37,723 nucleotides of DNA from an uncultured bacterium (lineage in GTDB: Bacteria; Fermentibacterota; Fermentibacteria; Fermentibacterales; JCC-6). Below, in pieces: positions 22,495-34,561 of the stretch. The stretch's first letter is position 1. Each line of letters starts with the position of its first letter. The stretch spans positions 1 through 37,723 of the forward strand of contig CAZRCS010000002.1 of the NCBI GenBank assembly GCA_964598645.1, read 5' to 3'. The position numbers and the translations under genes are program-made. A model generated the notes under the pieces. It was not told the origin of the DNA. It ran no database searches and saw nothing but the letters and a program-made list of their open reading frames with translations.

Positions 22495-24321
22495 TCAGGG
22501 AGTTACAACTACCCTCTGGGCAGCCATGCTGTCTTCGGTCTGCATGACGATTGAATAGGTTCCAGCTGGAAGAGCAGGGATCATGGCGGAGTAAACACCC
22601 GAAGCCATCTCACCGTCTGCGATCGAGTGAACTGTTCTTCCCATTCCGTCGTAAACTGCTATACTGACCCTTTCCGGCTGGTCAACTGTGTATCCAATGG
22701 AAAACGCGCCGGAAACAGGGTTCCCCGAGATAAGCCAGACCTTTCTGCCATCAACGGGTGCTGATCCTTCATCCTCAATGCTCACAGGATTCCAGAGCAC
22801 TGTAATGTCCTTCAGAGATGGTGTTGTGTTGGGATTGGAGGTGGCCAGACGAACCTGATACTGAAGGAAGCTGCCGCCCTGGGCTACAACTGTGGAAAGA
22901 TCTCCCGAAGACGTTATCCAGGAACTCCATGAACCCATGCTGCCGGAGTTGTATGATGTCTTGAGCCTGAACGTCACGCTTGTTCCATCAGGAGTTGTAC
23001 TGGCCCAGTAGATGTAGTCCCACTCAACCTTCGTCGGATCTTCCGGTTCGATGTTCAAAATGGAACTGGTAAGAAGACTGGGAGTGGTGAAGCCGCTAAC
23101 CCTCCACCAGCTGACCTTGTCTCCATTGTAGGCACATCCAAGAACGTCCGGTACACCATCGCCGTCCATGTCACCTACAGAAACCCCGAGGGCACCGGAG
23201 AAAAACGAAGAAACCGGGAATGTTTCCCAGGCCTCCCCCATGTACTCTCTGTTCTTGCACCATAGTATTCTGTTCTCGTTGTATGCTGCCAGAGTGAGGT
23301 CGGGATAGCCGTCACCGTCCATATCGTGGGCCGTTATATCGTAGACTCCTGCTGCCGATGCCCCGTTCATCTGGTGAGTGGTCCAGGAACTCTGCGTATC
23401 CAGGTAATCATACCATCTGATGTTTCCGGTGCCTGAAGAAGAGGCAACTGCAAAATCGTCATTACCGTCATTATTGAAGTCGGCTGCGTTAACTGACACC
23501 GGATTGTTGTAATTCGCGTCGATGGTGTACTTAGACCAGGAGTAGCCGTAGGGTGACCGGGAAATGTAAGCACAAATATCGTCGGCACTATTACTGGCTG
23601 CGGCAATGTCAGGATGGCCGTCTCCGTTGAAGTCGCCCACATCGCATGTATATGCCCCGATGAGAGCACCATCAATGTAGTTGATGTTCCATGAAGAGCT
23701 GCCGCCGTTGTTCCTCCACCAGCACACATCTCCTGAATAGCTTGAAACTCCCACCAAGTCCATTAAACCGTCTTGATCTATATCCGCTGCCCTTATCTGT
23801 CTGGCGTCGAATCCCGATGCAATAGTAGTACTCAAGCCCCAACCGCTGGGAGAACAAAGGAAAAGGACGATCTTGTCTTCATTGTCGCTGGATGCTACGA
23901 TGTCCTTGTAACCATTTTCGTCGAAGTCACCTACTGCAATGTATCTTGGAGTGCTGACTGAACCGATCACATGCTTGCTCCAGGCGGTTCCCTGACCATT
24001 GGTGTTCTCCACCCAGAAGATCTCACCGGAAACGTATGCACAACCTGCAGCATCCATGTCTCCGTCAGCATCTATATCCACAGCAATGACGTAGTATGGA
24101 CCGTTGGCGGTAGCTATGGGATTTTCGTCTCTGTCCACTATCAGTTTCAATTGTCCGGGTTCGGTATCCCAATCCATTGCACCTGAAATGTCAAACCTGT
24201 CCTGCCAGTCAGTCACCGGTCCTGTAACACCAGGCCCACCCTGCCAGTCTGTTTGTGTTTCACTAGCCGCCAGCATTGATCCGGCGAAAACAATCAACGC
24301 TATTAATAGCATTAACTTCAT
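22495..24321 (-). CDS. secreted FG-GAP/VCBS-repeat (beta-propeller) protein with T9SS-type C-terminal sorting domain
   Basis: Signal peptide MKLMLLIALIVFAGSMLAA is followed by at least 7 Ca-binding-like repeats (DIDADGDMD, DFDENGYKD, DIDQDGLMD, DFNGDGHPD, DFNNDGNDD, DMDGDGYPD, DMDGDGVPD). The C-terminal roughly 80 aa resemble a Por secretion tail. Confidence 0.85.
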   Translation of the reverse strand: MKLMLLIALIVFAGSMLAASETQTDWQGGPGVTGPVTDWQDRFDISGAMDWDTEPGQLKLIVDRDENPIATANGPYYVIAVDIDADGDMDAAGCAYVSGEIFWVENTNGQGTAWSKHVIGSVSTPRYIAVGDFDENGYKDIVASSDNEDKIVLFLCSPSGWGLSTTIASGFDARQIRAADIDQDGLMDLVGVSSYSGDVCWWRNNGGSSSWNINYIDGALIGAYTCDVGDFNGDGHPDIAAASNSADDICAYISRSPYGYSWSKYTIDANYNNPVSVNAADFNNDGNDDFAVASSSGTGNIRWYDYLDTQSSWTTHQMNGASAAGVYDITAHDMDGDGYPDLTLAAYNENRILWCKNREYMGEAWETFPVSSFFSGALGVSVGDMDGDGVPDVLGCAYNGDKVSWWRVSGFTTPSLLTSSILNIEPEDPTKVEWDYIYWASTTPDGTSVTFRLKTSYNSGSMGSWSSWITSSGDLSTVVAQGGSFLQYQVRLATSNPNTTPSLKDITVLWNPVSIEDEGSAPVDGRKVWLISGNPVSGAFSIGYTVDQPERVSIAVYDGMGRTVHSIADGEMASGVYSAMIPALPAGTYSIVMQTEDSMAAQRVVVTP

Positions 24322-24391
24322 TAAAATCCCCCTTTGTATTTGAAGTACATATATAAATACAGAGTGAGTATCTTTTGCTCTTTGCGGAACG

Positions 24392-24946
24392 TCAATACCC
24401 ATTCTGGGGATAGAGTTCTCCCGGTGACTTGATCTTCAGATAGCGGTCCCGCTCGCTGAAAACACATCCGCAGTAAGGTTGTCTGTATAACCCTGCTTCT
24501 CTGGAAAGTACAATGGATCTTTTATAAAGATCCCGGAAGTCGAAGTGGAGATACTCGACTCCAAAGTTTTCTGCGGCTTCCATAGCAGCTCTTTTGATGA
24601 GTTCCTGGTTCTGATAAGGGCTTACTGTCAATGTTGTCGTAAAACAATCAAAACCACTTCCAGCGGCCTCCGAAGCTGTCATCTTCATTCTGTCCAAAAA
24701 ACAGGAAAGACATCTGTTCTCTGCTTCAAGAAGCAACCTTACGTTATCCTCCAGAGGGTATTCTCTGAAAAAATCCACTGGGAGATTACATTCAGAAGCC
24801 CATGTTTCAAGGGTATTCAGCCTCCTCTGGAACTCCTTCCACGGATGAATTGAAGGATTATAGAAAAAACCTTGAACATCGAAATCATCTTCCCTGAGTT
24901 TTTCCACAACCGCAGTGGCGCATGGCGCGCAGCATATGTGCAACAT
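24392..24946 (-). CDS. queH: epoxyqueuosine reductase QueH (DUF208)
   Basis: MLHICCAPC is at the N-terminus, with a C-terminal PYCGCVFS motif. A TTG at 24961 is an alternative start. Confidence 0.88.
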   Translation of the reverse strand: MLHICCAPCATAVVEKLREDDFDVQGFFYNPSIHPWKEFQRRLNTLETWASECNLPVDFFREYPLEDNVRLLLEAENRCLSCFLDRMKMTASEAAGSGFDCFTTTLTVSPYQNQELIKRAAMEAAENFGVEYLHFDFRDLYKRSIVLSREAGLYRQPYCGCVFSERDRYLKIKSPGELYPQNGY

Positions 24947-24957
24947 TATACGCTTGC

Positions 24958-25977
24958 TCAAAGGGGAAGTACCTCCTGCCCTGCTTTCGTGTATCCCAAA
25001 TGACGATAAGCAAGACCAGTTGCTACCCTTCCCCTGCTGGTTCTGTTCAGAAAACCCGTGGCAAGAAGGAACGGTTCAACCACGTCGATAAGTGTATCTC
25101 TCTCCTCGTTAAGAGTAGCGGCAATTGCAGACACACCAACCGGCCCACCTCCGTAGTGTTTGATTATCACAGATAGGTAATCCCTGTCCAGGCGGTCAAG
25201 ACCCGCTTCGTCAACTCCGTTGATATCCATAGCTTCGATTGCGGTAGCTTCATCTATGGATTCTCTGCGCATTACCTGGGCGTAATCGCGAACCCTTTTC
25301 AGCAGCCTGTTGGCTATTCTGGGTGTTCCCCGGGAACGCATGGCCACGGAATTAGATCCGTCATCGGTTATTCCGGCTTCCAGTATCCCGGCAGACCTGC
25401 GAATTATCGTACAGAGCTCATTGGTATCGTAGAACTCGAGGTGCATGGAAAAACCAAATCTGTCTCTGAGGGGCCCGGTAATGAGTCCTGCTCTGGTGGT
25501 TGCACCGATAATGGTAAAATGACTCAACTCGAGCTTCACTGTTCTGGCATGGGGTCCCGGGTCAATTACCATGTCGATCTGAAAATCTTCCATGGCTGGA
25601 TATATGTATTCCTCCACTATCCTTGGAAGCCTGTGGATCTCGTCTATGAACAGCACATCCCCCCTGGAAAGGTTGGTGAGAATTCCAACCAGATCTGCAG
25701 GTCGTTCCAGGGCGGGACCTGACGTACACACAATTTCAGCATCCATTTCTGCTGCTATTACATGAGCCAGTGTTGTCTTTCCAAGACCCGGGGGACCATG
25801 AAAAAGCAAATGGTCAAGGGGTTCCCCCCTCTCCCGAGCCGCCTGAACGGCAATTTTCAGATTCTTGATCAGTCGCTTCTGACCTATGTATTCAGAAAAA
25901 TCCCTGGGGCGAAGCGAGGTAAACTCCCTCTCCTCTGCCGGATTTTCTCCTCCTCTTACAACAGATTCAAGAGACAT
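24958..25977 (-). CDS. ruvB: Holliday junction branch-migration DNA helicase RuvB
   Basis: SLRPRDFSEYIGQ, Walker A GPPGLGKTT, Walker B LFIDEIHR and sensor GATTRAG motifs are present. Confidence 0.97.
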   Translation of the reverse strand: MSLESVVRGGENPAEEREFTSLRPRDFSEYIGQKRLIKNLKIAVQAARERGEPLDHLLFHGPPGLGKTTLAHVIAAEMDAEIVCTSGPALERPADLVGILTNLSRGDVLFIDEIHRLPRIVEEYIYPAMEDFQIDMVIDPGPHARTVKLELSHFTIIGATTRAGLITGPLRDRFGFSMHLEFYDTNELCTIIRRSAGILEAGITDDGSNSVAMRSRGTPRIANRLLKRVRDYAQVMRRESIDEATAIEAMDINGVDEAGLDRLDRDYLSVIIKHYGGGPVGVSAIAATLNEERDTLIDVVEPFLLATGFLNRTSRGRVATGLAYRHLGYTKAGQEVLPL

Positions 25978-25978
25978 T

Positions 25979-26584
25979 TCACGTCCTCGCCTTCATTGCT
26001 GCGCGTACGATTTCAGAAGGAGAGGCATCCGTGCCCGTTTCTTCCACAGCCTGATTTACCAGCAGAGACGCTTCAGAAGCAGGAATTCCCAGTTGTTCCA
26101 GTATGGCCCTTGCGTCGGCTGCACTGCCCGGTTGAGCAGAGGCTCCAGTGCTGTACTCCAGTTTGCTGAATGAATCCTGGAGTTTGGCAATGATCTGTTT
26201 GGCCCTGGAAGTTCCTATACCCGGCAGTGACTTCAGTACCGGGATGTCACCTGCAGCAATTGCCCCGGCAAGCTCTGCAGGGGGGATTGTCATTGCCTTT
26301 GCAGCAGCTCTTATACCTATACCTGAGACACTGATGAACCTTTGGAAAAACTCTCTGTCTTCAGCTGTTGGGAAAGCAACCGCCAATGGAACACCCCGGT
26401 TCCCCTCGTTAAGGATCTGAAACAACAGATAGAACCTGCGCAGTTCACCGGGAGCCACGCTCCTGGTGAAATAACCCGGGGTCAGAAGGCTGAGGGTAAC
26501 AGGACCAGTTTCAAGGAAAATCTGTAACCCGTCTATTCCCTTCACTAGTCCTTTAACACTCTCAAACACGTTTTTCCTCCTCAT
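25979..26584 (-). CDS. ruvA: Holliday junction DNA-binding protein RuvA
   Basis: HhH motifs VSGIGIRAAAKAM and LPGIGTSRAKQII are present. The start is uncertain (ATG 26584, GTG 26569 or TTG 26611), and every option overlaps the ruvC 3' end. Confidence 0.88.
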   Translation of the reverse strand: MRRKNVFESVKGLVKGIDGLQIFLETGPVTLSLLTPGYFTRSVAPGELRRFYLLFQILNEGNRGVPLAVAFPTAEDREFFQRFISVSGIGIRAAAKAMTIPPAELAGAIAAGDIPVLKSLPGIGTSRAKQIIAKLQDSFSKLEYSTGASAQPGSAADARAILEQLGIPASEASLLVNQAVEETGTDASPSEIVRAAMKART

Positions 26585-27050
26585 AGAGGGCCAGAGCCAC
26601 GGCAAGAGCATCGCTTACATCAACCGGTTTAAGCTCCTCTTTAATTCCAAATATTCTGCGAACCATTCCATTGACCTGTATCTTGCTCGCCCTTCCGTTG
26701 CCGGTTACTGCTTTTTTTACCCTGCTTGCAGGCAGGGATTCCACACGAATGCCCTTCAAACCTGCGGCAAGACACAAAACTCCCCTGGCGTGCCCCATGA
26801 TGATTGCCGTGGCAGGGTGCCTGTAATGGGAGTAAATTTTTTCAAGCCCCATCACCTCGGGGTGGTAGCTTTCTATGACCCTGGCAATACCTTCATACAA
26901 CTCGACAAGCCTGGGAGTAAGAGGATCGGAAGATATTGTCCTGATGGTTCCGGCATCTATCAGCCTGACCTTCCCTCCGGAGGCTGCGATGATTCCATAA
27001 CCGGTAATGTTCAGCCCGGGGTCAACACCAAGTATTATCTTTTCAGGCAA
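26562..27050 (-). CDS. ruvC: crossover junction endodeoxyribonuclease RuvC
   Basis: ILGVDPGLNITGYGII (catalytic Asp) and the C-terminal DALAVAL motif are present. The TTG start directly abuts the yebC stop. Confidence 0.92.
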   Translation of the reverse strand: MPEKIILGVDPGLNITGYGIIAASGGKVRLIDAGTIRTISSDPLTPRLVELYEGIARVIESYHPEVMGLEKIYSHYRHPATAIIMGHARGVLCLAAGLKGIRVESLPASRVKKAVTGNGRASKIQVNGMVRRIFGIKEELKPVDVSDALAVALALYEEEKRV

Positions 27051-27776
27051 CTACTCCGCCATGTCGAAGTTCGAATAAAGAGCCTGAACATCATCGTGCT
27101 CCTCCAGCGATTCAAGAAGTTTCATTGCCTTCTCGGCATCTTTACCCTGAAGAACCACCGTATTTGAGGGAACCTTTGTAACTTCTGCGGAATCCACTTT
27201 GATCCCTGCGTTCTCAAGGGTCTTCTTTACATCGAAAACGTCATCGGGAGCTGATGTAGCAATGATCATATCGTCCTGAACCTGAACATCTTCAAGACCG
27301 GCTTCAAGACCGGCTTCAAGAACCTCATCTTCAGAATGAGAAGCTGCGTCTATGGTTATCTGCCCTTCTCTGCTGAAGAGATAGGCGACACTGTTCTTAG
27401 ATCCCAGACTACCCCCTCCCTTCGTTAGAAGATGCCTTATCTCTGCGGCGGACCGATTCTTGTTATCGGTGAGAACCTCGATGATTATCGCAACACCTCC
27501 GGGACCGTAGGCTTCGTAGACCATCTCTTCGTAGGTTATTCCCTCAAGTTCACCGGTTCCCCTCTTGATCGCTCTTTCGATGTTGTCATTGGGCATGTTC
27601 TGACTTCTGGCGGTGTCTACGGCGACCCTTAGCCTGGGGTTCATCTCGGGATCACCACCGCCCTGTCTCGCCGCCACTGATATCTCCTTGACAAGTCGTG
27701 AGAATATCCTTCCCCTGGCGGCGTCAGCCTTGCCCTTCTTGTGTTTTATTGTACTCCATTTATTGTGTCCGGACAT
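27051..27776 (-). CDS. yebC: YebC/PmpR family DNA-binding transcriptional regulator
   Basis: The MSGHNKWSTIKHKKG N-terminus is diagnostic for the family. AAGGAGA precedes the ATG. Confidence 0.95.
   Translation of the reverse strand: MSGHNKWSTIKHKKGKADAARGRIFSRLVKEISVAARQGGGDPEMNPRLRVAVDTARSQNMPNDNIERAIKRGTGELEGITYEEMVYEAYGPGGVAIIIEVLTDNKNRSAAEIRHLLTKGGGSLGSKNSVAYLFSREGQITIDAASHSEDEVLEAGLEAGLEDVQVQDDMIIATSAPDDVFDVKKTLENAGIKVDSAEVTKVPSNTVVLQGKDAEKAMKLLESLEEHDDVQALYSNFDMAE
27290..27322. repeat. in-frame 12-nt tandem repeat (cttcaagaccgg x2 plus a 9-nt partial copy) inside yebC
   Basis: Read directly from the sequence. On the minus strand it encodes LEAGLEAGLED. Confidence 0.85.
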
Positions 27777-27839: not shown

Positions 27840-28529
27840 TCAAGCTTCCCCCGGGGCAAACTCGATTATCCGATCCCAGTCGTGCGCAGATCTCCTGAAA
27901 AAGCTGACTCCGGTATCTGCTATGTGCACTTTCTCCACCTCCTGGGTGCAAGGCAGAATCACCACGGAACTCCTTACAGCAGAAAGCACAAGATCGATCT
28001 CAGCAAGCCAGTCAGACTTTTCCGCTTCCTGCCCCACGGCAACACAACGCGCAAGGACCTCTGCATCTCCCCGGGAAATCGAGCCCCCACACACCTCCGG
28101 ATACTTCCGGGATTTCTCCAGGATGGAGGGTAGTTGGGAGAGCTTCTCTGAAAGAGTAACGCCTATCCCGGGCAATCCGTTAACTGAAAACGCAGGGAAC
28201 AGAAACTCCCGCCTCTCCGAGATACCTCCGGTTTCCCTGGTTTTACCCTTAAGCACTTCATCATCATACTTACTTTTGAACCTGAGTATGGTGGAAGTGA
28301 ACTCATTTCTCACTGTTCTTTTAAGGACATGCACCGCAGCACTTACCCTCCAGAAAGGCAGGGCAGTCCCTTCTCCGTATCTTGCCCTCTGCTCGATGGA
28401 AATGGATTTCAAACCCGATTCCTCACCGAGCCAGCCGGCTCCGCAGTTGGAGCAGACGAATATAACATCGGTACCAAGCCCCCTGAGAAAGCTACCGCAT
28501 GAACCGCATACAAGCCTGGTTACCCTCAT
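27840..28529 (-). CDS. Zn-ribbon protein C of a three-gene paralogous set (soluble, 229 aa), function unknown
   Basis: N-terminal CGSC-N14-CSNC is followed by an LPFW motif, with no TM segment. The start forms an ATGA overlap with the stop of protein B. Confidence 0.6.
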   Translation of the reverse strand: MRVTRLVCGSCGSFLRGLGTDVIFVCSNCGAGWLGEESGLKSISIEQRARYGEGTALPFWRVSAAVHVLKRTVRNEFTSTILRFKSKYDDEVLKGKTRETGGISERREFLFPAFSVNGLPGIGVTLSEKLSQLPSILEKSRKYPEVCGGSISRGDAEVLARCVAVGQEAEKSDWLAEIDLVLSAVRSSVVILPCTQEVEKVHIADTGVSFFRRSAHDWDRIIEFAPGEA

Positions 28530-29566
28530 ACGTGGCTATCCGTTCCGGCATTCTTCCCTGCCATGTTCAGAAATCTCAGGGAAACAGCTCCCAGCCCCCA
28601 GAGAGAGAGAATGAAAAACATCAGCACAGGCCCCACCGAAAGAAATCCAGAGAAGATAACCAGCAGAATAAGAGGCAGCAGGCCAGCCCATATGCTTCCC
28701 AGTATTCCGGTAACTTTTTTCCAGTGTTCGTAATCTGCGGGGAAAGTTCCCCTGAGAACTTCTCCACTCACCCCGTCTACTACTATTCTGAAGCGTTTAC
28801 TTCCAAGAGAATAGTCAACCGTCCACAGGGGATAATGAATCAACCGCTCTCTGGAACCTGTTACAGCCAGGTACATTGAACGCTGTTCAAGACCGACTCC
28901 CACACCTTCACAGAGCCTTGAAACATACTCTTCGGATTCAAAACGGGCCTGGGCAATGGATACAGCCGGATCCACAACATGAGCTTCCGCAGGAAGATGC
29001 TCCGAGTCGAATACCTTCAGAGGAAGTCTGGAACCAGACCTGCCCAGAGCCATTCCTGACAGGGCCATCTGTGAATTTTTCCCCAGTGAAGGTATCCCCA
29101 GAGGTTCCAGGTTGGCGGCACTGACGATCATGTCAATCTCATTGCTGATCTGGTGCTCTTCTGCCCTGATGCCCTTCCTCTGCTTGATGGTCCTCACAAT
29201 TGATGTCTGCCCGCCACCGCCGTCGTTCTCGGCAAAGGTTTTTATCTGCCTTTCCTTGAACACAGGTTTCACACCGAAAACATAGCCGTCCACCCTGCAT
29301 GAGATAAGCCAGAATGGTACGTATGCCAGGAAGGGCTTACCAACCCTGCACCGGCTGAAAACCCCCCTGGATACTTCTTCAAGCTTCCTTCCAACCGACC
29401 GGATTACCCCGGTGGCACCGGTTTCGGATTCAATAATGTAGCGTTTAACGATGCCTTGAAGCAAAAGCGGCGTATCACAGTGTGAACACCTGGTATTGGT
29501 ATTTCCCTCACTGGTTTTCAAAAGTCCCCCGCATGAGGGACATTGCAGGGTAAGAAGATCACTCAT
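28526..29566 (-). CDS. Zn-ribbon protein B (346 aa, C-terminal 2-TM hairpin), function unknown
   Basis: N-terminal CPSC-N14-CSHC; two W-motif modules (YVPFWLIS and IHYPLWTVDY...VVDGVSGEVLRG); C-terminal helices ILGSIWAGLLPLILLVIFSGF and PVLMFFILSLWGLGAVSL. The ATG at 29566 overlaps the protein A stop by 8 nt, whereas the longer ORF to 29773 would overlap A by more than 200 nt. Confidence 0.6.
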   Translation of the reverse strand: MSDLLTLQCPSCGGLLKTSEGNTNTRCSHCDTPLLLQGIVKRYIIESETGATGVIRSVGRKLEEVSRGVFSRCRVGKPFLAYVPFWLISCRVDGYVFGVKPVFKERQIKTFAENDGGGGQTSIVRTIKQRKGIRAEEHQISNEIDMIVSAANLEPLGIPSLGKNSQMALSGMALGRSGSRLPLKVFDSEHLPAEAHVVDPAVSIAQARFESEEYVSRLCEGVGVGLEQRSMYLAVTGSRERLIHYPLWTVDYSLGSKRFRIVVDGVSGEVLRGTFPADYEHWKKVTGILGSIWAGLLPLILLVIFSGFLSVGPVLMFFILSLWGLGAVSLRFLNMAGKNAGTDSHV

Positions 29567-30203
29567 GGGTTTTCCTGCGTAGTCTGTTCCAGATATCCGG
29601 GGCATATACCGCAGCGGCCATTCCCAGAACAGACGCCCAGAATATGGAAATGTTCCTGAGAAGGAAAAAAACCAGAAGAGCTGGAAGAACTCCAAGGCCG
29701 AATGCCCTGAAGGCCCAGTAAAAAGGATCGAACTTCCTGGAAGACTCCGGAGAGTCACCCAGGATCTTGCCACTCACCGCATCTACTATGGATCCCTGAC
29801 CGGATGAAGAATCTATGAGAACCCAGAATGGATGATAAATGACACCCTGTTCTCCGATCAGGTCGGGGTCTACAGGTATTACTTTACCCTGGGCTGACTG
29901 CTCATCCCATATGCGTCTGTCTGCAGCGGGAGGCACGTATTTCTCCATCTCCGGATATGGCTGGGTAAAAACGGATGAAAGATCTTCAGGATCGTAGGGA
30001 AACCAATAGATAGATGCAGAAGCAACCCCACCAACAGGGAAAAGCCGAATGGCATCCTGCTTCGAAAGAACCGGTCGATGAAGATAGCTTTGACCGGTAA
30101 AACCCGTAATTATGGCCCTTGCTCCGCAGTACGAACAGTTCGCATAGGCATCCGGGGAGGTTACCGCGATGAAAGCTCCGCATTGTGTGCACTTAAGTTT
30201 CAT
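29559..30203 (-). CDS. Zn-ribbon protein A (214 aa, C-terminal 2-TM hairpin), function unknown
   Basis: N-terminal CTQC-N14-CSYC; IYWFPY and IYHPFWVLI...IVDAVSGKILGD motifs; C-terminal helices FGLGVLPALLVFFLL and IFWASVLGMAAAVYA. GGAGGA lies 7 nt upstream of the ATG. Confidence 0.6.
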   Translation of the reverse strand: MKLKCTQCGAFIAVTSPDAYANCSYCGARAIITGFTGQSYLHRPVLSKQDAIRLFPVGGVASASIYWFPYDPEDLSSVFTQPYPEMEKYVPPAADRRIWDEQSAQGKVIPVDPDLIGEQGVIYHPFWVLIDSSSGQGSIVDAVSGKILGDSPESSRKFDPFYWAFRAFGLGVLPALLVFFLLRNISIFWASVLGMAAAVYAPDIWNRLRRKTHE

Positions 30204-30231
30204 CGCAGAATCCTCCCCGCTCTTTGCCCTG

Positions 30232-32409
30232 TTATTCCCCTGCTACTATAACCCTTGAAGTAACCACCCCTGAACCTGTCTCAAGCCTCACGAAGTGAAC
30301 CCCTGAAGGCACCCCTGAGGTGTTCCAGAGAACGTTGTCTGAACCGCTCTCTGAAATGGAGGCAGACAGGTCGGCTATGGTTCTTCCGGACAGATCGAAA
30401 ACCTTCAGTGATGCTCCTGCAAGGTCACAAGGCGTAATGAAAACCGGTATCACTGCTGTGTCAGTCACAGGATTGGGGGTTACAAGACCCAGGGTGGATA
30501 CCGCCGGGGAAACCCCCTGGGAAAAGTCCTCTGCTGAAGACCCGCTGACCATGGCCTGCACAGGCTCTGAAGGCCATCCAGGTCCGAAGGAATCATCCAC
30601 GGCCCATACCCTGAACCAGTGCTCGCCGTCGGCAACTCCGGTAACCGTATGCTGGGAAGATGCGATCTCATCTGCCTGAATACAGTTGGAATCCCATACA
30701 TCCAGTTTGATGTCGTCAATATAGAGTTTGCAGGAGGAGCTGCTTCCGTAACTCTCCCACCGGAACATCAGTGTTTCACCCTGGAACTCGTCCAGTTCAT
30801 GCACGTTGAACCGCCAGGTCATGTCATTCCTGCCGAAGGTCTGCAGGTAGTACCAGTTTGCTCCGGCGTCGGGACTGTATGAGAAAGCTCCCTGACAACT
30901 TTCAGGAGTGATGTTCTGCATTGACCAGAAGCTTATCCTTGCTCCGCCTCCGGCGGGAACCGTTACGGTTTCCTGCCATGTCATGGATCCGGTGCCGTTT
31001 GAAACGTAGCATTGAGGCGAGCTGTGATACTGGGCAGAGGTCATTATCCAGTTGACCCTGTCGAAGGGACCGCTGTCGCCGGAATCATCAAGGAGCACCT
31101 GATAACCGTCGAGTCTCTGAAGGGTGTAGTAGTCTGCGTCGGCAGCGTCGCTCCAGTCCACTGTAAAGGGAGGTGTTACAGAACCTATGGCATCCACAAC
31201 AGGCACACCGGGTTCATGGGGATCGTAGGGGCACCCGGCAAGACACGCCGTTACCAGATAGCTTCTGAGGTTACGGCGGGAAAGCTTGACCACCTCGGTT
31301 GCAGAGGGCCAGAAACCCGCAAAAGACGCACCTGTTTCATGGTTCCAGCTCATGGCACCGTAAAGGGCATATGAGTGGTCTCTGGTGTTTCCCGAAGCAT
31401 AGTAGAACTGTGCTGATGGATAGTGATCCTCTCCGGTTCCCCAGAGAACCATCATATCGCCCTGGGTCTGATACTGGGCAGCGTGGGTAGTCGGATCATC
31501 GGTCCAGCCCCAGGGATAGATCAGAGCATTGGAATAGCAATGGGTGGAGTGCATCTGGTCAGGCTCGTGGGTCTGCCAGAACGTATCGATATTCGATGAC
31601 TCAGGCTCTGAAAGAGGGCCGGTTCCCCTGTAGGTTTCAGAAGAAGGATCACCGCTGGAACCTGAACCGCCCCAGGCCACGGACCAGTTCCTGTTCAGAT
31701 CTATTCCATTTCCTCCGGCGGAGAGATTCCGGTTCTTCCTGTGCATGCCGCCGCCGCCGGGGGATGTGGTTTCGTTATAAACCCAGCCGTCCACATTGTT
31801 GCATGGAAGACACCATATCTCGCGATTCTCAAGGAGCCAGGTAGCCTGGTATCCGCAGTAGCCGTTCCTCTGATAATTACTGCAGAGCCACATCATCCAG
31901 TAGCGGATGTTACGCATTGAAGCGCCTTCACGGGCATGTATGAGGCCGTCGTACCAGGCGTTGGCCATTGAGGGGTCATCGTCGTTGAAGCTGTTGTTGA
32001 CGGATAGTTTGACAACCCTCTGGGGCCGTCCTTCATAGGTATTGCCTATGGACTCCACGGATGTGATGGAAGGATTCGCTGCAACCAGAGAATCGATCCA
32101 GGCATCTATCTCGGCCCATGTGTAGAACCCCCCCATGGAACGGCTGCTGCCGTTCAAGGCCCTGTAATAGCCTTCCATATCAGCTATTCTCGTTTCAGCG
32201 GAAAGCCCGTTCTCCAGAAGCAGAGACCTCTCGTATGATCCTGCAACGAAGTCCACCGAGCCGTCCCTGTAAATCTGAACCACATCGAAACCCAGCCTGG
32301 CGAAAAGCTCCTGCTGGGAATCGGACAAAGGGTTGAAATTCATAAGAGAATAGATCTCCCCTGCAAACACAACCGCAGGTATCACAACCACTAAGAACAG
32401 ATATTTCAA
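30232..32409 (-). CDS. secreted M14 zinc carboxypeptidase with extra beta-rich domains and a T9SS-type C-terminal sorting domain
   Basis: M14 motifs are IHAREGAS (HxxE), DLNRNW and HCYSNALIYPWG. The C-terminal roughly 80 aa (...LKVFDLSGRTIADL...SGVHFVRLETGSG...) look like a Por secretion tail. The TTG start at 32409 lies 6 nt after a perfect GGAGG and is followed by the signal peptide KYLFLVVVIPAVVFA. Confidence 0.88.
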   Translation of the reverse strand: MKYLFLVVVIPAVVFAGEIYSLMNFNPLSDSQQELFARLGFDVVQIYRDGSVDFVAGSYERSLLLENGLSAETRIADMEGYYRALNGSSRSMGGFYTWAEIDAWIDSLVAANPSITSVESIGNTYEGRPQRVVKLSVNNSFNDDDPSMANAWYDGLIHAREGASMRNIRYWMMWLCSNYQRNGYCGYQATWLLENREIWCLPCNNVDGWVYNETTSPGGGGMHRKNRNLSAGGNGIDLNRNWSVAWGGSGSSGDPSSETYRGTGPLSEPESSNIDTFWQTHEPDQMHSTHCYSNALIYPWGWTDDPTTHAAQYQTQGDMMVLWGTGEDHYPSAQFYYASGNTRDHSYALYGAMSWNHETGASFAGFWPSATEVVKLSRRNLRSYLVTACLAGCPYDPHEPGVPVVDAIGSVTPPFTVDWSDAADADYYTLQRLDGYQVLLDDSGDSGPFDRVNWIMTSAQYHSSPQCYVSNGTGSMTWQETVTVPAGGGARISFWSMQNITPESCQGAFSYSPDAGANWYYLQTFGRNDMTWRFNVHELDEFQGETLMFRWESYGSSSSCKLYIDDIKLDVWDSNCIQADEIASSQHTVTGVADGEHWFRVWAVDDSFGPGWPSEPVQAMVSGSSAEDFSQGVSPAVSTLGLVTPNPVTDTAVIPVFITPCDLAGASLKVFDLSGRTIADLSASISESGSDNVLWNTSGVPSGVHFVRLETGSGVVTSRVIVAGE

Positions 32410-32557
32410 TGCATGCCTCCTGAATGAAAAATACGGGGTAATACAGGTTTTATAAATAATAAGCAAAGCAGATGCAATCGGATGAATAGGGCCGGAAGTC
32501 GCTGATTTTTGTATCTTTCCCAGGTAGGAACAAGTTTAAATCAATACGGAGGAAACC

Positions 32558-34561
32558 ATGAAAACCTTCAAGGAACAGATACGGCAGGGAATCCCAGGTG
32601 AGATGCCGCCCATGCCGAAATCGGAAGAAAATGTAAACAGAGCTCCCGCCAGACCGGATATCCTTACAAAGAACGAGAAAAAACTCGCCCTGAAAAATGC
32701 CCTCAGATACTTCCCGAAGGAATGGCATGAAACCCTCGCCCCTGAGTTTGCAGAAGAGCTGAAAAGAACCGGCAGGATCTACATGTACAGATTCCGGCCA
32801 ACCTATGAAATGAAGGCAAGGGCCATTGAGGAGTATCCAGCTGAAACCTCCCAGGCTGCTGCGATCATGCTTATGATCCAGAACAACCTTGACAAGGAGG
32901 TTGCACAGCACCCTGAAGAACTTATAACATACGGCGGCAACGGTACCGTGTTTCAGAACTGGGCTCAATACCTGCTCACAATGAAGTACCTTTCGGAAAT
33001 GACAGAAGAACAGACACTGGTTCTTTACTCGGGACATCCCCTTGGTCTCTTCCCCTCCCACAAAGACGCTCCGAGAGTGGTTGTGACCAACGGCATGGTC
33101 ATACCAAACTACTCGAGCCAGAACGACTACACGAAGATGGCTGCTCTGGGCGTAACAAGTTACGGTCAGATGACAGCAGGCAGCTTCATGTACATAGGTC
33201 CCCAGGGAATAGTACATGGAACTACGATCACCCTTCTCAACGCAGGCAGAAAGTATCTGAAAACCGGTGAGGCCGGCCTTGAGGGAAAAGTATTCGTAAC
33301 AAGCGGACTGGGCGGCATGAGCGGTGCCCAGGCAAAGGCTGCTGTTATTGCCGGCGCTGTGGGAGTTGTTGCAGAGGTCAACCCCAAGGCCCTGAATACC
33401 AGATACGAGCAGGGCTGGCTCCAGGAGGTGGAGGAAGACCTTGACAGGGCGGTAGCCAGGATAAGAAGAGCCAAGAAGGAAGGCAAACCCCTTTCACTTG
33501 GATTCCTTGGCAACATAGTCGATCTATGGGAAAAACTCGTGGATGAAAACGTTCAGATCGAACTTGGAAGTGACCAGACAAGCCTTCATAATCCCTGGAT
33601 GGGCGGTTACTATCCTGCGGGGCTTTCACTTGAAGAGAGCAACCGCATGATGGTGGAGGAACCTGAGAAGTTCAAGGAAAAAGTAAGGGAATCCCTGAGA
33701 AGGCACGTGAAGGCTGTAAACACCATGTGTCAGCGGGGAATGCACTTCTGGGACTACGGAAATGCATTCCTCCTCGAGGCCTCCAGGGCAGGTGCCGACG
33801 GGATACTGAAAGAAGACGGCACCTTCGCATATCCGTCATACGTTGAAGATATCATGGGCCCTGTCTGCTTTGATTACGGTTTCGGCCCCTTCAGATGGGT
33901 TTGCACATCGGGAGATCCCGATGACCTTAGAAAAACCGACAGAATCGCCGCAATGGTTCTGGAAAAAATGGCACAGGATGCCACCGATGAAAACAGGCAG
34001 CAGCTTCTGGATAACCTGCGGTGGATCCGCCACGCCGAAGAAAACCGTATGGTGGTTGGCTCTCAGGCTAGAATCCTCTACACCGACTGGGCAGGAAGAA
34101 TAGCAATAGCCACCGAATTCAATAGAGCGGTTTCCGAGGGAAGAGTATCCGCTCCCATAGTCCTTGGCAGAGACCACCATGACGTTTCCGGTACCGACAG
34201 CCCCTACAGGGAAACCGCCAACATAAGAGACGGCTCCATGTTCACGGCAGACATGGCAATTCAGAACGTAATAGGCGACTCCTTCAGGGGAGCCACCTGG
34301 GTAAGCATACACAACGGTGGCGGAGTCGGCTGGGGCGAGGTCATCAACGGCGGGTTCGGAATGCTCCTCGACGGTTCACAGGATGCTGGAAGAAGAGCAA
34401 AATCCATGCTAAGCTGGGACGTGGGCAACGGTCTTGCCAGAAGAAGCTGGGCAAGGAACGACGGTGCTATCTGGGCGATAAAACAGGCAATGCAGGCTGA
34501 GCCCCTAATGAAGGTAACCATTCCTGAAATAGCCGACGATGAAGTTCTGAACCAGTTCTGA
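32558..34561 (+). CDS. hutU: urocanate hydratase (long ~670-aa form)
   Basis: ELITYGGNG, MTAGSFMYIGPQGIVHGT, GLGGMSGAQ and IHNGGGVGWG motifs are present. GGAGGA lies upstream of the ATG. Confidence 0.95.
   Translation: MKTFKEQIRQGIPGEMPPMPKSEENVNRAPARPDILTKNEKKLALKNALRYFPKEWHETLAPEFAEELKRTGRIYMYRFRPTYEMKARAIEEYPAETSQAAAIMLMIQNNLDKEVAQHPEELITYGGNGTVFQNWAQYLLTMKYLSEMTEEQTLVLYSGHPLGLFPSHKDAPRVVVTNGMVIPNYSSQNDYTKMAALGVTSYGQMTAGSFMYIGPQGIVHGTTITLLNAGRKYLKTGEAGLEGKVFVTSGLGGMSGAQAKAAVIAGAVGVVAEVNPKALNTRYEQGWLQEVEEDLDRAVARIRRAKKEGKPLSLGFLGNIVDLWEKLVDENVQIELGSDQTSLHNPWMGGYYPAGLSLEESNRMMVEEPEKFKEKVRESLRRHVKAVNTMCQRGMHFWDYGNAFLLEASRAGADGILKEDGTFAYPSYVEDIMGPVCFDYGFGPFRWVCTSGDPDDLRKTDRIAAMVLEKMAQDATDENRQQLLDNLRWIRHAEENRMVVGSQARILYTDWAGRIAIATEFNRAVSEGRVSAPIVLGRDHHDVSGTDSPYRETANIRDGSMFTADMAIQNVIGDSFRGATWVSIHNGGGVGWGEVINGGFGMLLDGSQDAGRRAKSMLSWDVGNGLARRSWARNDGAIWAIKQAMQAEPLMKVTIPEIADDEVLNQF

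Follow-up and report, generated by a model that had tools for sequence, protein, structure and literature searches.

A three-gene cassette of zinc-ribbon paralogues in Fermentibacteria and its distant relation to the Bacillus membrane anchor YdjG/SamG

To which family do three adjacent, overlapping zinc-ribbon genes of an uncultured Fermentibacteria bacterium belong, and what might their products do together? The genes, here called A, B and C in 5' to 3' order on their own strand, occupy positions 27840–30203 of the minus strand in a stretch of 37,723 nucleotides (contig CAZRCS010000002.1, assembly GCA_964598645.1), which was analysed as a whole and is referred to below as the window. An earlier inspection of the letters alone (the sequence-only reading) had proposed that they encode a dedicated membrane-associated complex, and had found no named family for them. 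Profile comparisons now show that A and B are remote homologues of YdjG/SamG, a protein of Bacillus subtilis, and that the trio is a widespread cassette, usually encoded beside a gene for an SPFH (stomatin, prohibitin, flotillin, HflK/C) protein. SPFH proteins are universal membrane organisers; to our knowledge, membrane attachment of their soluble Band_7_1 subgroup is known from a single B. subtilis operon only.

Gene layout and protein architecture

Gene A (29559..30203) encodes 214 residues, gene B (28526..29566) 346 and gene C (27840..28529) 229, all on the minus strand. The boundaries of A and C follow the list of open reading frames (ORFs) and the sequence, and B was started at the ATG at 29566, which is common to all its orthologues. 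The stop of A and the start of B overlap by 8 nt (ATGAGTGA), the stop of B and the start of C by 4 nt (ATGA). A Shine-Dalgarno-like GGAGGA, read from the sequence, lies at 30211..30216 on the same strand, 7 nt 5' of the ATG of A. Scanning for promoters and terminators around the trio returned nothing exceeding shuffled expectation. The longest ORF of gene B (28526–29773, minus strand) adds 207 nt before this ATG and begins within gene A, at a GTG at 29773. Gene-calling software might make B too long; a database homologue (P0004) carries 15 extra residues at its N-terminus.

Each protein opens with a zinc ribbon of the form CxxC-N14-CxxC, built from C5-x2-C8-x14-C23-x2-C26 in A, from C9, C12, C27 and C30 in B, and from C8, C11, C26 and C29 in C. 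In alignments of 29–32 orthologues, these four cysteines are invariant or nearly so. The ribbon of B is followed by a helix, a very long beta-hairpin (residues 79–149), an LEPLGIPSLG loop, further helices, a second hairpin sheet carrying YPLW...VDGVSG and, at the C-terminus, two predicted membrane helices (279–340); the motifs PFW, LEPLGIPSLG, VDP, EQR, YPLW and VDG.SG are kept in its orthologues. Protein C shows hairpin, helices and hairpin behind its ribbon in the same order as B, lacks a membrane segment, and shares PFW and FPAF with its orthologues. In protein A, the alpha/beta core that follows the ribbon is YdjG-like but reduced, and a predicted membrane hairpin of two helices (about residues 161–202) stands at the C-terminus; WFPY and YHPFW...VDAVSG are the motifs retained. 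The proteins have no signal peptide, and the C-terminal tail is basic.

AlphaFold2 models were obtained for B (predicted local distance difference test, pLDDT, 75.7) and for C (pLDDT 83.5; predicted template modelling score, pTM, 0.81). Both have the same order of elements, namely ribbon, long hairpin, helices and second hairpin sheet, to which B adds the two membrane helices. Hydropathy and these models agree in predicting two C-terminal membrane helices in B and none in C; the pair in A is predicted from hydropathy. The picture of two membrane-anchored paralogues and a soluble one, drawn in the sequence-only reading, is thus borne out by these predictions. The three adjacent CxxC-N14-CxxC genes, both overlaps and the GGAGGA before A are also exactly as that reading described them.

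Known domain families contribute little beyond the ribbon. Pfam and NCBIfam searches with A, B and C returned zinc-ribbon matches only, all sub-threshold, and revealed neither an enzymatic motif nor a recognisable output domain (kinase, cyclase or helix-turn-helix). PADLOC (anti-phage defence) and PHROGs (phage families) gave zero matches for A, B and C, and for the SPFH and B-like proteins of archaeal loci described below. The absence of enzymatic motifs, claimed at the outset, therefore stands across all four collections. No Pfam match to an SPFH domain (PF01145 or PF13421) was found in A, B or C; in other lineages that domain belongs to the neighbouring gene.

The most likely description of each of the three proteins is an N-terminal Cys4 zinc ribbon and, behind it, an alpha/beta core that is PepSY/YpeB-like and consists of two helix-plus-long-hairpin units. 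In its second hairpin unit (YPLW...VDG.SG.VL), the core is similar to the two C-terminal strands of PepSY/YpeB (PF03413). PepSY domains are normally extracytoplasmic; unlike the usual PepSY, the unit of the trio stands after a putatively cytoplasmic zinc ribbon and before the membrane anchor. Pfam gave no PepSY match in A, B or C, and the match of a Geobacter B-like protein (P0152; E 0.004, 17.9 bits) falls below the Pfam cutoff of 24. The core of YdjG has itself been called 'related to YpeB' (PMC11237479).

The long hairpins raise the question of whether A, B and C might instead oligomerise through them into a barrel, in the manner of beta-pore-forming toxins, and so form a membrane pore or conduit. 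In the model of B, the hairpin measures about 35 residues per strand, and the top matches of this model in a Foldseek search against the PDB were pore forms of epsilon-toxin, cytolysin and haemolysins. These matches are non-significant (best E 0.03) and involve the long hairpin only, at a template modelling score (TM-score) of about 0.1; the model of C had no significant match in the PDB or BFVD. The hairpin is charge-rich and not amphipathic as a membrane barrel would be, a signal peptide is lacking, the Cys4 ribbons are of a cytoplasmic type, and PADLOC and PHROGs hold no counterpart. A pore is thus a very improbable role for the trio.

Paralogy, selection and relation to YdjG/SamG

Pairwise BLASTP among A, B and C detects the ribbon only, plus one C-terminal stretch shared by A and B. 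For comparison at the profile level, genomes were scanned (one per species) with a single conserved peptide pattern taken from 12 closer sequences, and 80 of 324 loci were retained; their orthologues provided broad A-like, B-like and C-like profiles, which were compared by hhalign. The A-like and B-like profiles match over 222 columns (100%, E 2.6e-47), and the C-like and B-like profiles over 162 columns (97.3%, E 2.5e-11), extending well past the ribbon. The families of the window pair one-to-one with the three broad clades: its A family (A3) matches the A-like profile at 98.8% (E 8e-17), its B family (A1) the B-like profile at 100% (E 4.7e-41) and its C family (A2) the C-like profile at 99.7% (E 8e-27). 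The paralogy that had been proposed from the shared ribbons thus gains support from the rest of the proteins, and A, B and C are ancient, true paralogues. The N14 spacing of the ribbon is kept in other phyla as well, in 73/76 A-like, 79/79 B-like and 74/76 C-like proteins.

Among the Fermentibacteria, each protein has orthologues in 40–47 cluster representatives from metagenome bins, at 53–100% identity and with consecutive locus tags where these are given. The names carried by near-identical proteins point to Candidatus Fermentibacteria/Sabulitectum as the source. Comparison with one relative (locus L087, 80–88% protein identity) gave ratios of non-synonymous to synonymous substitution rates (dN/dS) of 0.16 for A, 0.08 for B and 0.11 for C, with no internal stops, no frameshifts and both gene overlaps retained. 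With dN/dS at 0.08–0.16, all three genes are therefore under purifying selection, and the ORFs are intact.

The SPFH proteins encoded beside the trio in other lineages include some that combine Band_7_1 with a C-terminal zinc ribbon. This is the architecture of B. subtilis YdjI/SamI, whose operon, pspA-ydjGHI, was retrieved by means of a published ydjG primer (PMC8581546). Its YdjG is a protein of 341 residues that starts with MIISYKCPNC and contains two zinc ribbons, a core and one membrane helix. A B-like profile (A5) matches it over 266 columns (98.4%, E 7e-15), from the second ribbon (CENC-N14-CSFC) via PFW and LPVW..NGQTG to the membrane helix. The broad B-like profile behaves similarly (98.2%, E 6e-14, 255 columns), followed by the broad A-like profile (96.9%, E 1.7e-10, 218 columns); the broad C-like profile reaches 92.5% over only 73 columns of the N-terminal part, comprising the ribbon and first hairpin. 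Compared with YdjG directly, the B family of the window aligns across 83 N-terminal columns (91%, E 1e-6). In a phmmer search of YdjG against all ORFs of the window, B and A were the only matches. These comparisons show that A and B are remote homologues of YdjG/SamG, that B is the closest of the three, and that the relation of C is partial.

This alters one claim of the sequence-only reading, which had placed the proteins in no named family and would have been overturned by confident matches of all three to a characterised one. The trio indeed has no family in Pfam, NCBIfam, PADLOC or PHROGs; the remote homology of A and B to YdjG/SamG nevertheless gives them a relative with a name, and the match is convincing for B, less strong for A, and in C restricted to the ribbon and first hairpin. 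Neither Pfam nor NCBIfam holds a family-level model for YdjG itself, which is why the trio had seemed to be an orphan.

In the published description, YdjG combines two zinc ribbons with an NTF2-like domain, uncharacterised and related to YpeB, and with a membrane segment (PMC11237479). It interacts with YdjH, and deletion of ydjG or ydjH abolishes the membrane foci of YdjI and PspA in B. subtilis (PMC8581546). A 2026 preprint renames the three proteins SamG, SamH and SamI, assigns SamG the role of membrane anchor for SamI, and proposes that SamI restrains SamGH signalling (bioRxiv 10.64898/2026.02.06.704340). Like the proteins of the trio, YdjG/SamG carries an N-terminal CxxC-N14-CxxC ribbon at its very first residues and an alpha/beta core with PFW and [YL]P[LV]W...[DN]G.[ST]G motifs; like A and B, in which it is predicted, it has a C-terminal membrane anchor. 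It is also encoded beside a Band_7_1 SPFH gene, as the trio is in most lineages, though not in the Fermentibacteria window. The main difference lies in the number and build of the proteins: YdjG is a single gene, whereas the trio consists of three diverged paralogues with one ribbon each, two of them with two predicted membrane helices and one with none. The family is already known through one Bacillus protein, and the cassette is a new architectural variant of a poorly characterised family.

Occurrence in other phyla, SPFH neighbours and possible role

An exhaustive profile search with the B family returned 1,507 cluster representatives at E <= 1e-3, 238 of them at <= 1e-10. The matches include Geobacter sulfurreducens AAR34411.1 and proteins from metagenome-assembled genomes (MAGs) of Anaerolineae and Deltaproteobacteria, and all are annotated 'hypothetical' or 'zinc ribbon domain-containing'. 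The majority of the 80 trio loci come from Ignavibacteria, with others from Chloroflexota, Acidobacteriota, Bacillota and Vulcanimicrobiota; archaeal loci were found in Methanoperedens, ANME-2, Hadarchaeota and one MAG titled Thermococci. Wherever flanking DNA sufficed, the genes stood in the order A-B-C on one strand, with a single exception (75/76 loci). The A-like proteins of these phyla measure about 250–275 residues, the B-like about 350 and the C-like about 200, and 4-nt overlaps are frequent.

Five representatives (P0185, P0178, P0201, P0277 and P0279) are fusions that join a B-like protein, membrane helices included, to a C-like protein in a single polypeptide; the one from an Anaerolineae MAG (P0185, 604 residues) matches the C profile at E 2.7e-15. 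Because such fusions exist, B and C probably act together. The sequence-only reading had inferred a dedicated membrane-associated complex from the set of two membrane-anchored paralogues and a soluble one. Both the coupling and the gene order are kept across phyla, archaea included, and these, together with the B-C fusions, argue for such a complex; synteny beyond this genome is well documented by the same counts. A more distant lineage (L092:5730–8048) has a B-C pair only, without an A-like gene, and a small gene for an HATPase_c_2 (anti-sigma-factor-like kinase) protein precedes the pair.

Neighbour families were found by clustering all neighbouring ORFs of the trio loci. In 54 of the 70 loci with enough upstream DNA (77%), a gene directly upstream of the trio and on the same strand encodes an SPFH protein of about 336 residues. 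This neighbour is of the Band_7_1 type (PF13421, E down to 8e-65) and matches B. subtilis YdjI at about 1e-36; its C-terminus bears zinc ribbons in archaea and a SHOCT tail in Ignavibacteria. The full order in G. sulfurreducens is Band_7_1-A-B-C. In 31 loci, the SPFH gene is itself preceded by a gene for a helical or coiled-coil protein of about 175 residues (for example L005:3614–4123, L008:3500–4045 and L046:3426–3950), which contains invariant IPGYxGY and GYSG motifs. It belongs to no Pfam family and has a sub-threshold NCBIfam match to LIMLP_15305 of Leptospira. That it could be a diverged PspA/ESCRT-III protein (ESCRT, endosomal sorting complex required for transport) was rejected, as the hhalign probability was 0.4% and a sequence search of the PDB gave generic coiled coils only.

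Together, these results lead us to lean, with some reserve, towards the trio forming a hetero-oligomeric platform, situated at the cytoplasmic side of the membrane, that docks an SPFH (Band_7_1) scaffold. A and B would be tethered to the cytoplasmic membrane via their C-terminal two-helix hairpins; C has no membrane segment. The ribbon and core domains of A and B would face the cytoplasm, because their Cys4 ribbons are N-terminal, no signal peptide is present and the C-terminal tail is basic. All three would assemble in fixed stoichiometry into one complex on the inner membrane face, where the platform would dock and position the soluble YdjI-type SPFH oligomer. This docking role is suggested because A and B resemble YdjG and because a YdjI-type SPFH gene lies upstream in most other lineages. 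Such a platform may be part of membrane-stress sensing or membrane maintenance, and in Fermentibacteria it might work with a partner encoded elsewhere, or alone.

Several observations weigh against this assignment. Compared directly with YdjG, the A, B and C families of the window align over the N-terminal part only, and the full-length relation comes from intermediate profiles. The partners of YdjG, which contains two ribbons and a single membrane helix, are the TPM-domain protein YdjH and PspA; phmmer found no YdjH-like gene and no PspA homologue in any examined trio locus. An adjacent SPFH gene is missing from 16 of the 70 testable loci, mostly of Chloroflexota. Genes for SPFH, PspA or TPM (YdjH-like) proteins were not found in the 37.7-kb window, nor within 7–8 kb of the trio in five other Fermentibacteria loci. 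The functional assignment is thus weaker than the family assignment for the Fermentibacteria genome, because the SPFH partner is not in view there.

The same gaps bear on a different explanation, in which the trio would sense or signal membrane stress as a self-contained module, independently of any SPFH protein: A and B would sense the state of the membrane via their hairpins, and C would pass on or buffer the signal within the cytoplasm. Trios without an adjacent SPFH gene occur in Fermentibacteria, Chloroflexota, Acidobacteriota and others, and the universally kept core is A-B-C rather than the SPFH gene. In the three lineages named, the trio is surrounded by housekeeping genes that differ from one lineage to the next. 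B. subtilis genetics have been read as SamGH signalling restrained by SamI (bioRxiv 10.64898/2026.02.06.704340), one B-C pair adjoins the HATPase_c_2 kinase-like gene mentioned above, and an OmpR-type regulator lies near Chloroflexota loci. However, A, B and C contain no recognisable output domain, and the nearby regulators are lineage-specific and mixed with housekeeping genes; around the Chloroflexota loci that lack SPFH, the search for a conserved partner gave only lineage-specific housekeeping genes (EF-P, GNAT, RidA) besides the OmpR-type regulator. Moreover, an SPFH gene adjoins 77% of the testable loci. We regard an SPFH-free sensor as possible, if doubtful, and retain the docking platform as the preferred account.

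As a platform, the trio would share the logic of other SPFH partner modules, such as HflK/C with FtsH, QmcA with the NfeD protein YbbJ, and flotillin with YuaF/YqiJ (PMC11237479; bioRxiv 10.64898/2026.02.06.704340). In these modules, a small dedicated membrane protein is encoded beside the SPFH scaffold and is needed for its membrane organisation. Unlike those partners, A, B and C lack NfeD, YqiJ and protease domains and show no detectable relation to them in sequence or fold, and the SPFH partner of the trio, where present, is a soluble Band_7_1 protein that ends in a zinc ribbon or a SHOCT tail.

For the archaeal loci, we considered the 'Meth_adaptin' ESCRT neighbourhood, which comprises Vps4, ESCRT-III and adaptin-appendage proteins (Makarova et al., PMC11188069). 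The likeness lies in SPFH proteins with coiled-coil and zinc-ribbon parts alongside zinc-ribbon proteins in Methanosarcinales-type archaea. This context was rejected, since no Vps4, ESCRT-III or adaptin gene lies near the archaeal loci examined. The neighbours are PAC2, a DNA methylase, a kinase-ORC protein and an H-NOB protein in Methanoperedens (L008), and glutamine amidotransferase-like proteins, DUF362 and ornithine cyclodeaminase in the MAG titled Thermococci (L005).

We found no functional description of the trio or of LIMLP_15305 in the literature, and no account of the three-paralogue cassette, its breadth, its pairing with SPFH and coiled-coil genes or the B-C fusions; subscription-only literature lay outside this coverage. 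The results indicate that the YdjG/SamG anchor belongs to a far larger family, for which Pfam and NCBIfam have no model, and that more than 1,000 clusters of 'hypothetical' or 'zinc ribbon domain-containing' proteins could gain a better name. The fixed three-paralogue cassette, usually with an SPFH gene and the new coiled-coil gene, points to the hetero-oligomeric platform as the unit of study, and G. sulfurreducens is a genetically tractable organism in which the full cassette is present. A much broader proposal would see in A-B-C an ancient hetero-oligomeric sub-membrane machine of bacteria and archaea, the founder of a new class of SPFH-organising or SPFH-independent complexes distinct from PspA-SamGHI, with the coiled-coil and YdjI-type SPFH proteins as accessories and, in Fermentibacteria and Geobacter, a functional tie to yebC-ruvCAB-queH instead of membrane stress only; we consider it unlikely.

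Two-gene modules of SPFH and YdjG-like genes were also seen on megaplasmids of Comamonas (L089, 3393–5873) and Vibrio coralliilyticus (L090, 3714–5867). The YdjG-like partner in these plasmid modules is annotated 'TFIIB-type zinc ribbon-containing protein', and a TIR-domain gene is found a few kilobases away from the Vibrio module. A weak YdjG-like match was observed in a 138-kb record of Enterococcus phage Efs 1-1-1.

Surroundings of the trio in Fermentibacteria and the yebC-ruvCAB-queH genes

Downstream of the trio on the minus strand lie yebC, ruvC, ruvA, ruvB and queH (24392..27776), recognised by their Pfam matches and treated here as context rather than as a shown part of the system. The start of yebC is 63 nt past the stop of C, with no terminator beyond shuffled expectation between the two. 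The order A-B-C-yebC-ruvC-ruvA-ruvB-queH is kept in Fermentibacteria relatives down to 39% identity (L001–L004, L087 and L091). In G. sulfurreducens (L088, 1–8624), SPFH-A-B-C lies just downstream of yebC-ruvC-ruvA-ruvB-hda...queH-DUF2905.

Such an arrangement would be explained if the trio served DNA metabolism, its ribbons binding nucleic acid and its anchors tethering DNA or the RuvABC/YebC machinery to the membrane, with co-transcription of all these genes. The order conserved in Fermentibacteria, the lack of a terminator above chance between C and yebC, and the position of the Geobacter cassette, directly behind queH and at most 5 kb downstream of yebC-ruvCAB, all speak for this idea, as does the first zinc ribbon of YdjG, which matches the TFIIB type. 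On the other hand, yebC, ruvA, ruvC and queH occur near the trio in 0/80 other loci and ruvB in two, on the opposite strand, so that a general link of the trio to ruvABC, yebC or queH was rejected. The partner recurring across phyla is the SPFH gene and not a DNA enzyme, and zinc ribbons are generic interaction modules. The whole region, including the urocanase and M14 peptidase genes, is syntenic within Fermentibacteria, so the linkage may be one of simple inheritance. We judge a role in DNA metabolism improbable and continue to favour SPFH docking; the closeness of the Geobacter cassette to the yebC-ruv cluster may be chance or a relic.

Within this cluster, the ORF assigned to RuvA (25979–26611, minus strand) overlaps ruvC by 50 nt and has only an HHH_5 match in Pfam, without RuvA_N. 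Probably, the true start lies further downstream, or the N-terminal domain is divergent.

Two large secreted proteins flank the block formed by the trio and the ruv genes, each with a type-IX secretion C-terminal sorting domain. Upstream of the trio is an M14 zinc carboxypeptidase (30232–32466, minus strand), and on the other side lies an FG-GAP repeat protein (22495–24402, minus strand). The urocanase gene (32558–34561) is on the plus strand, and it and the M14 peptidase gene are syntenic in other Fermentibacteria.

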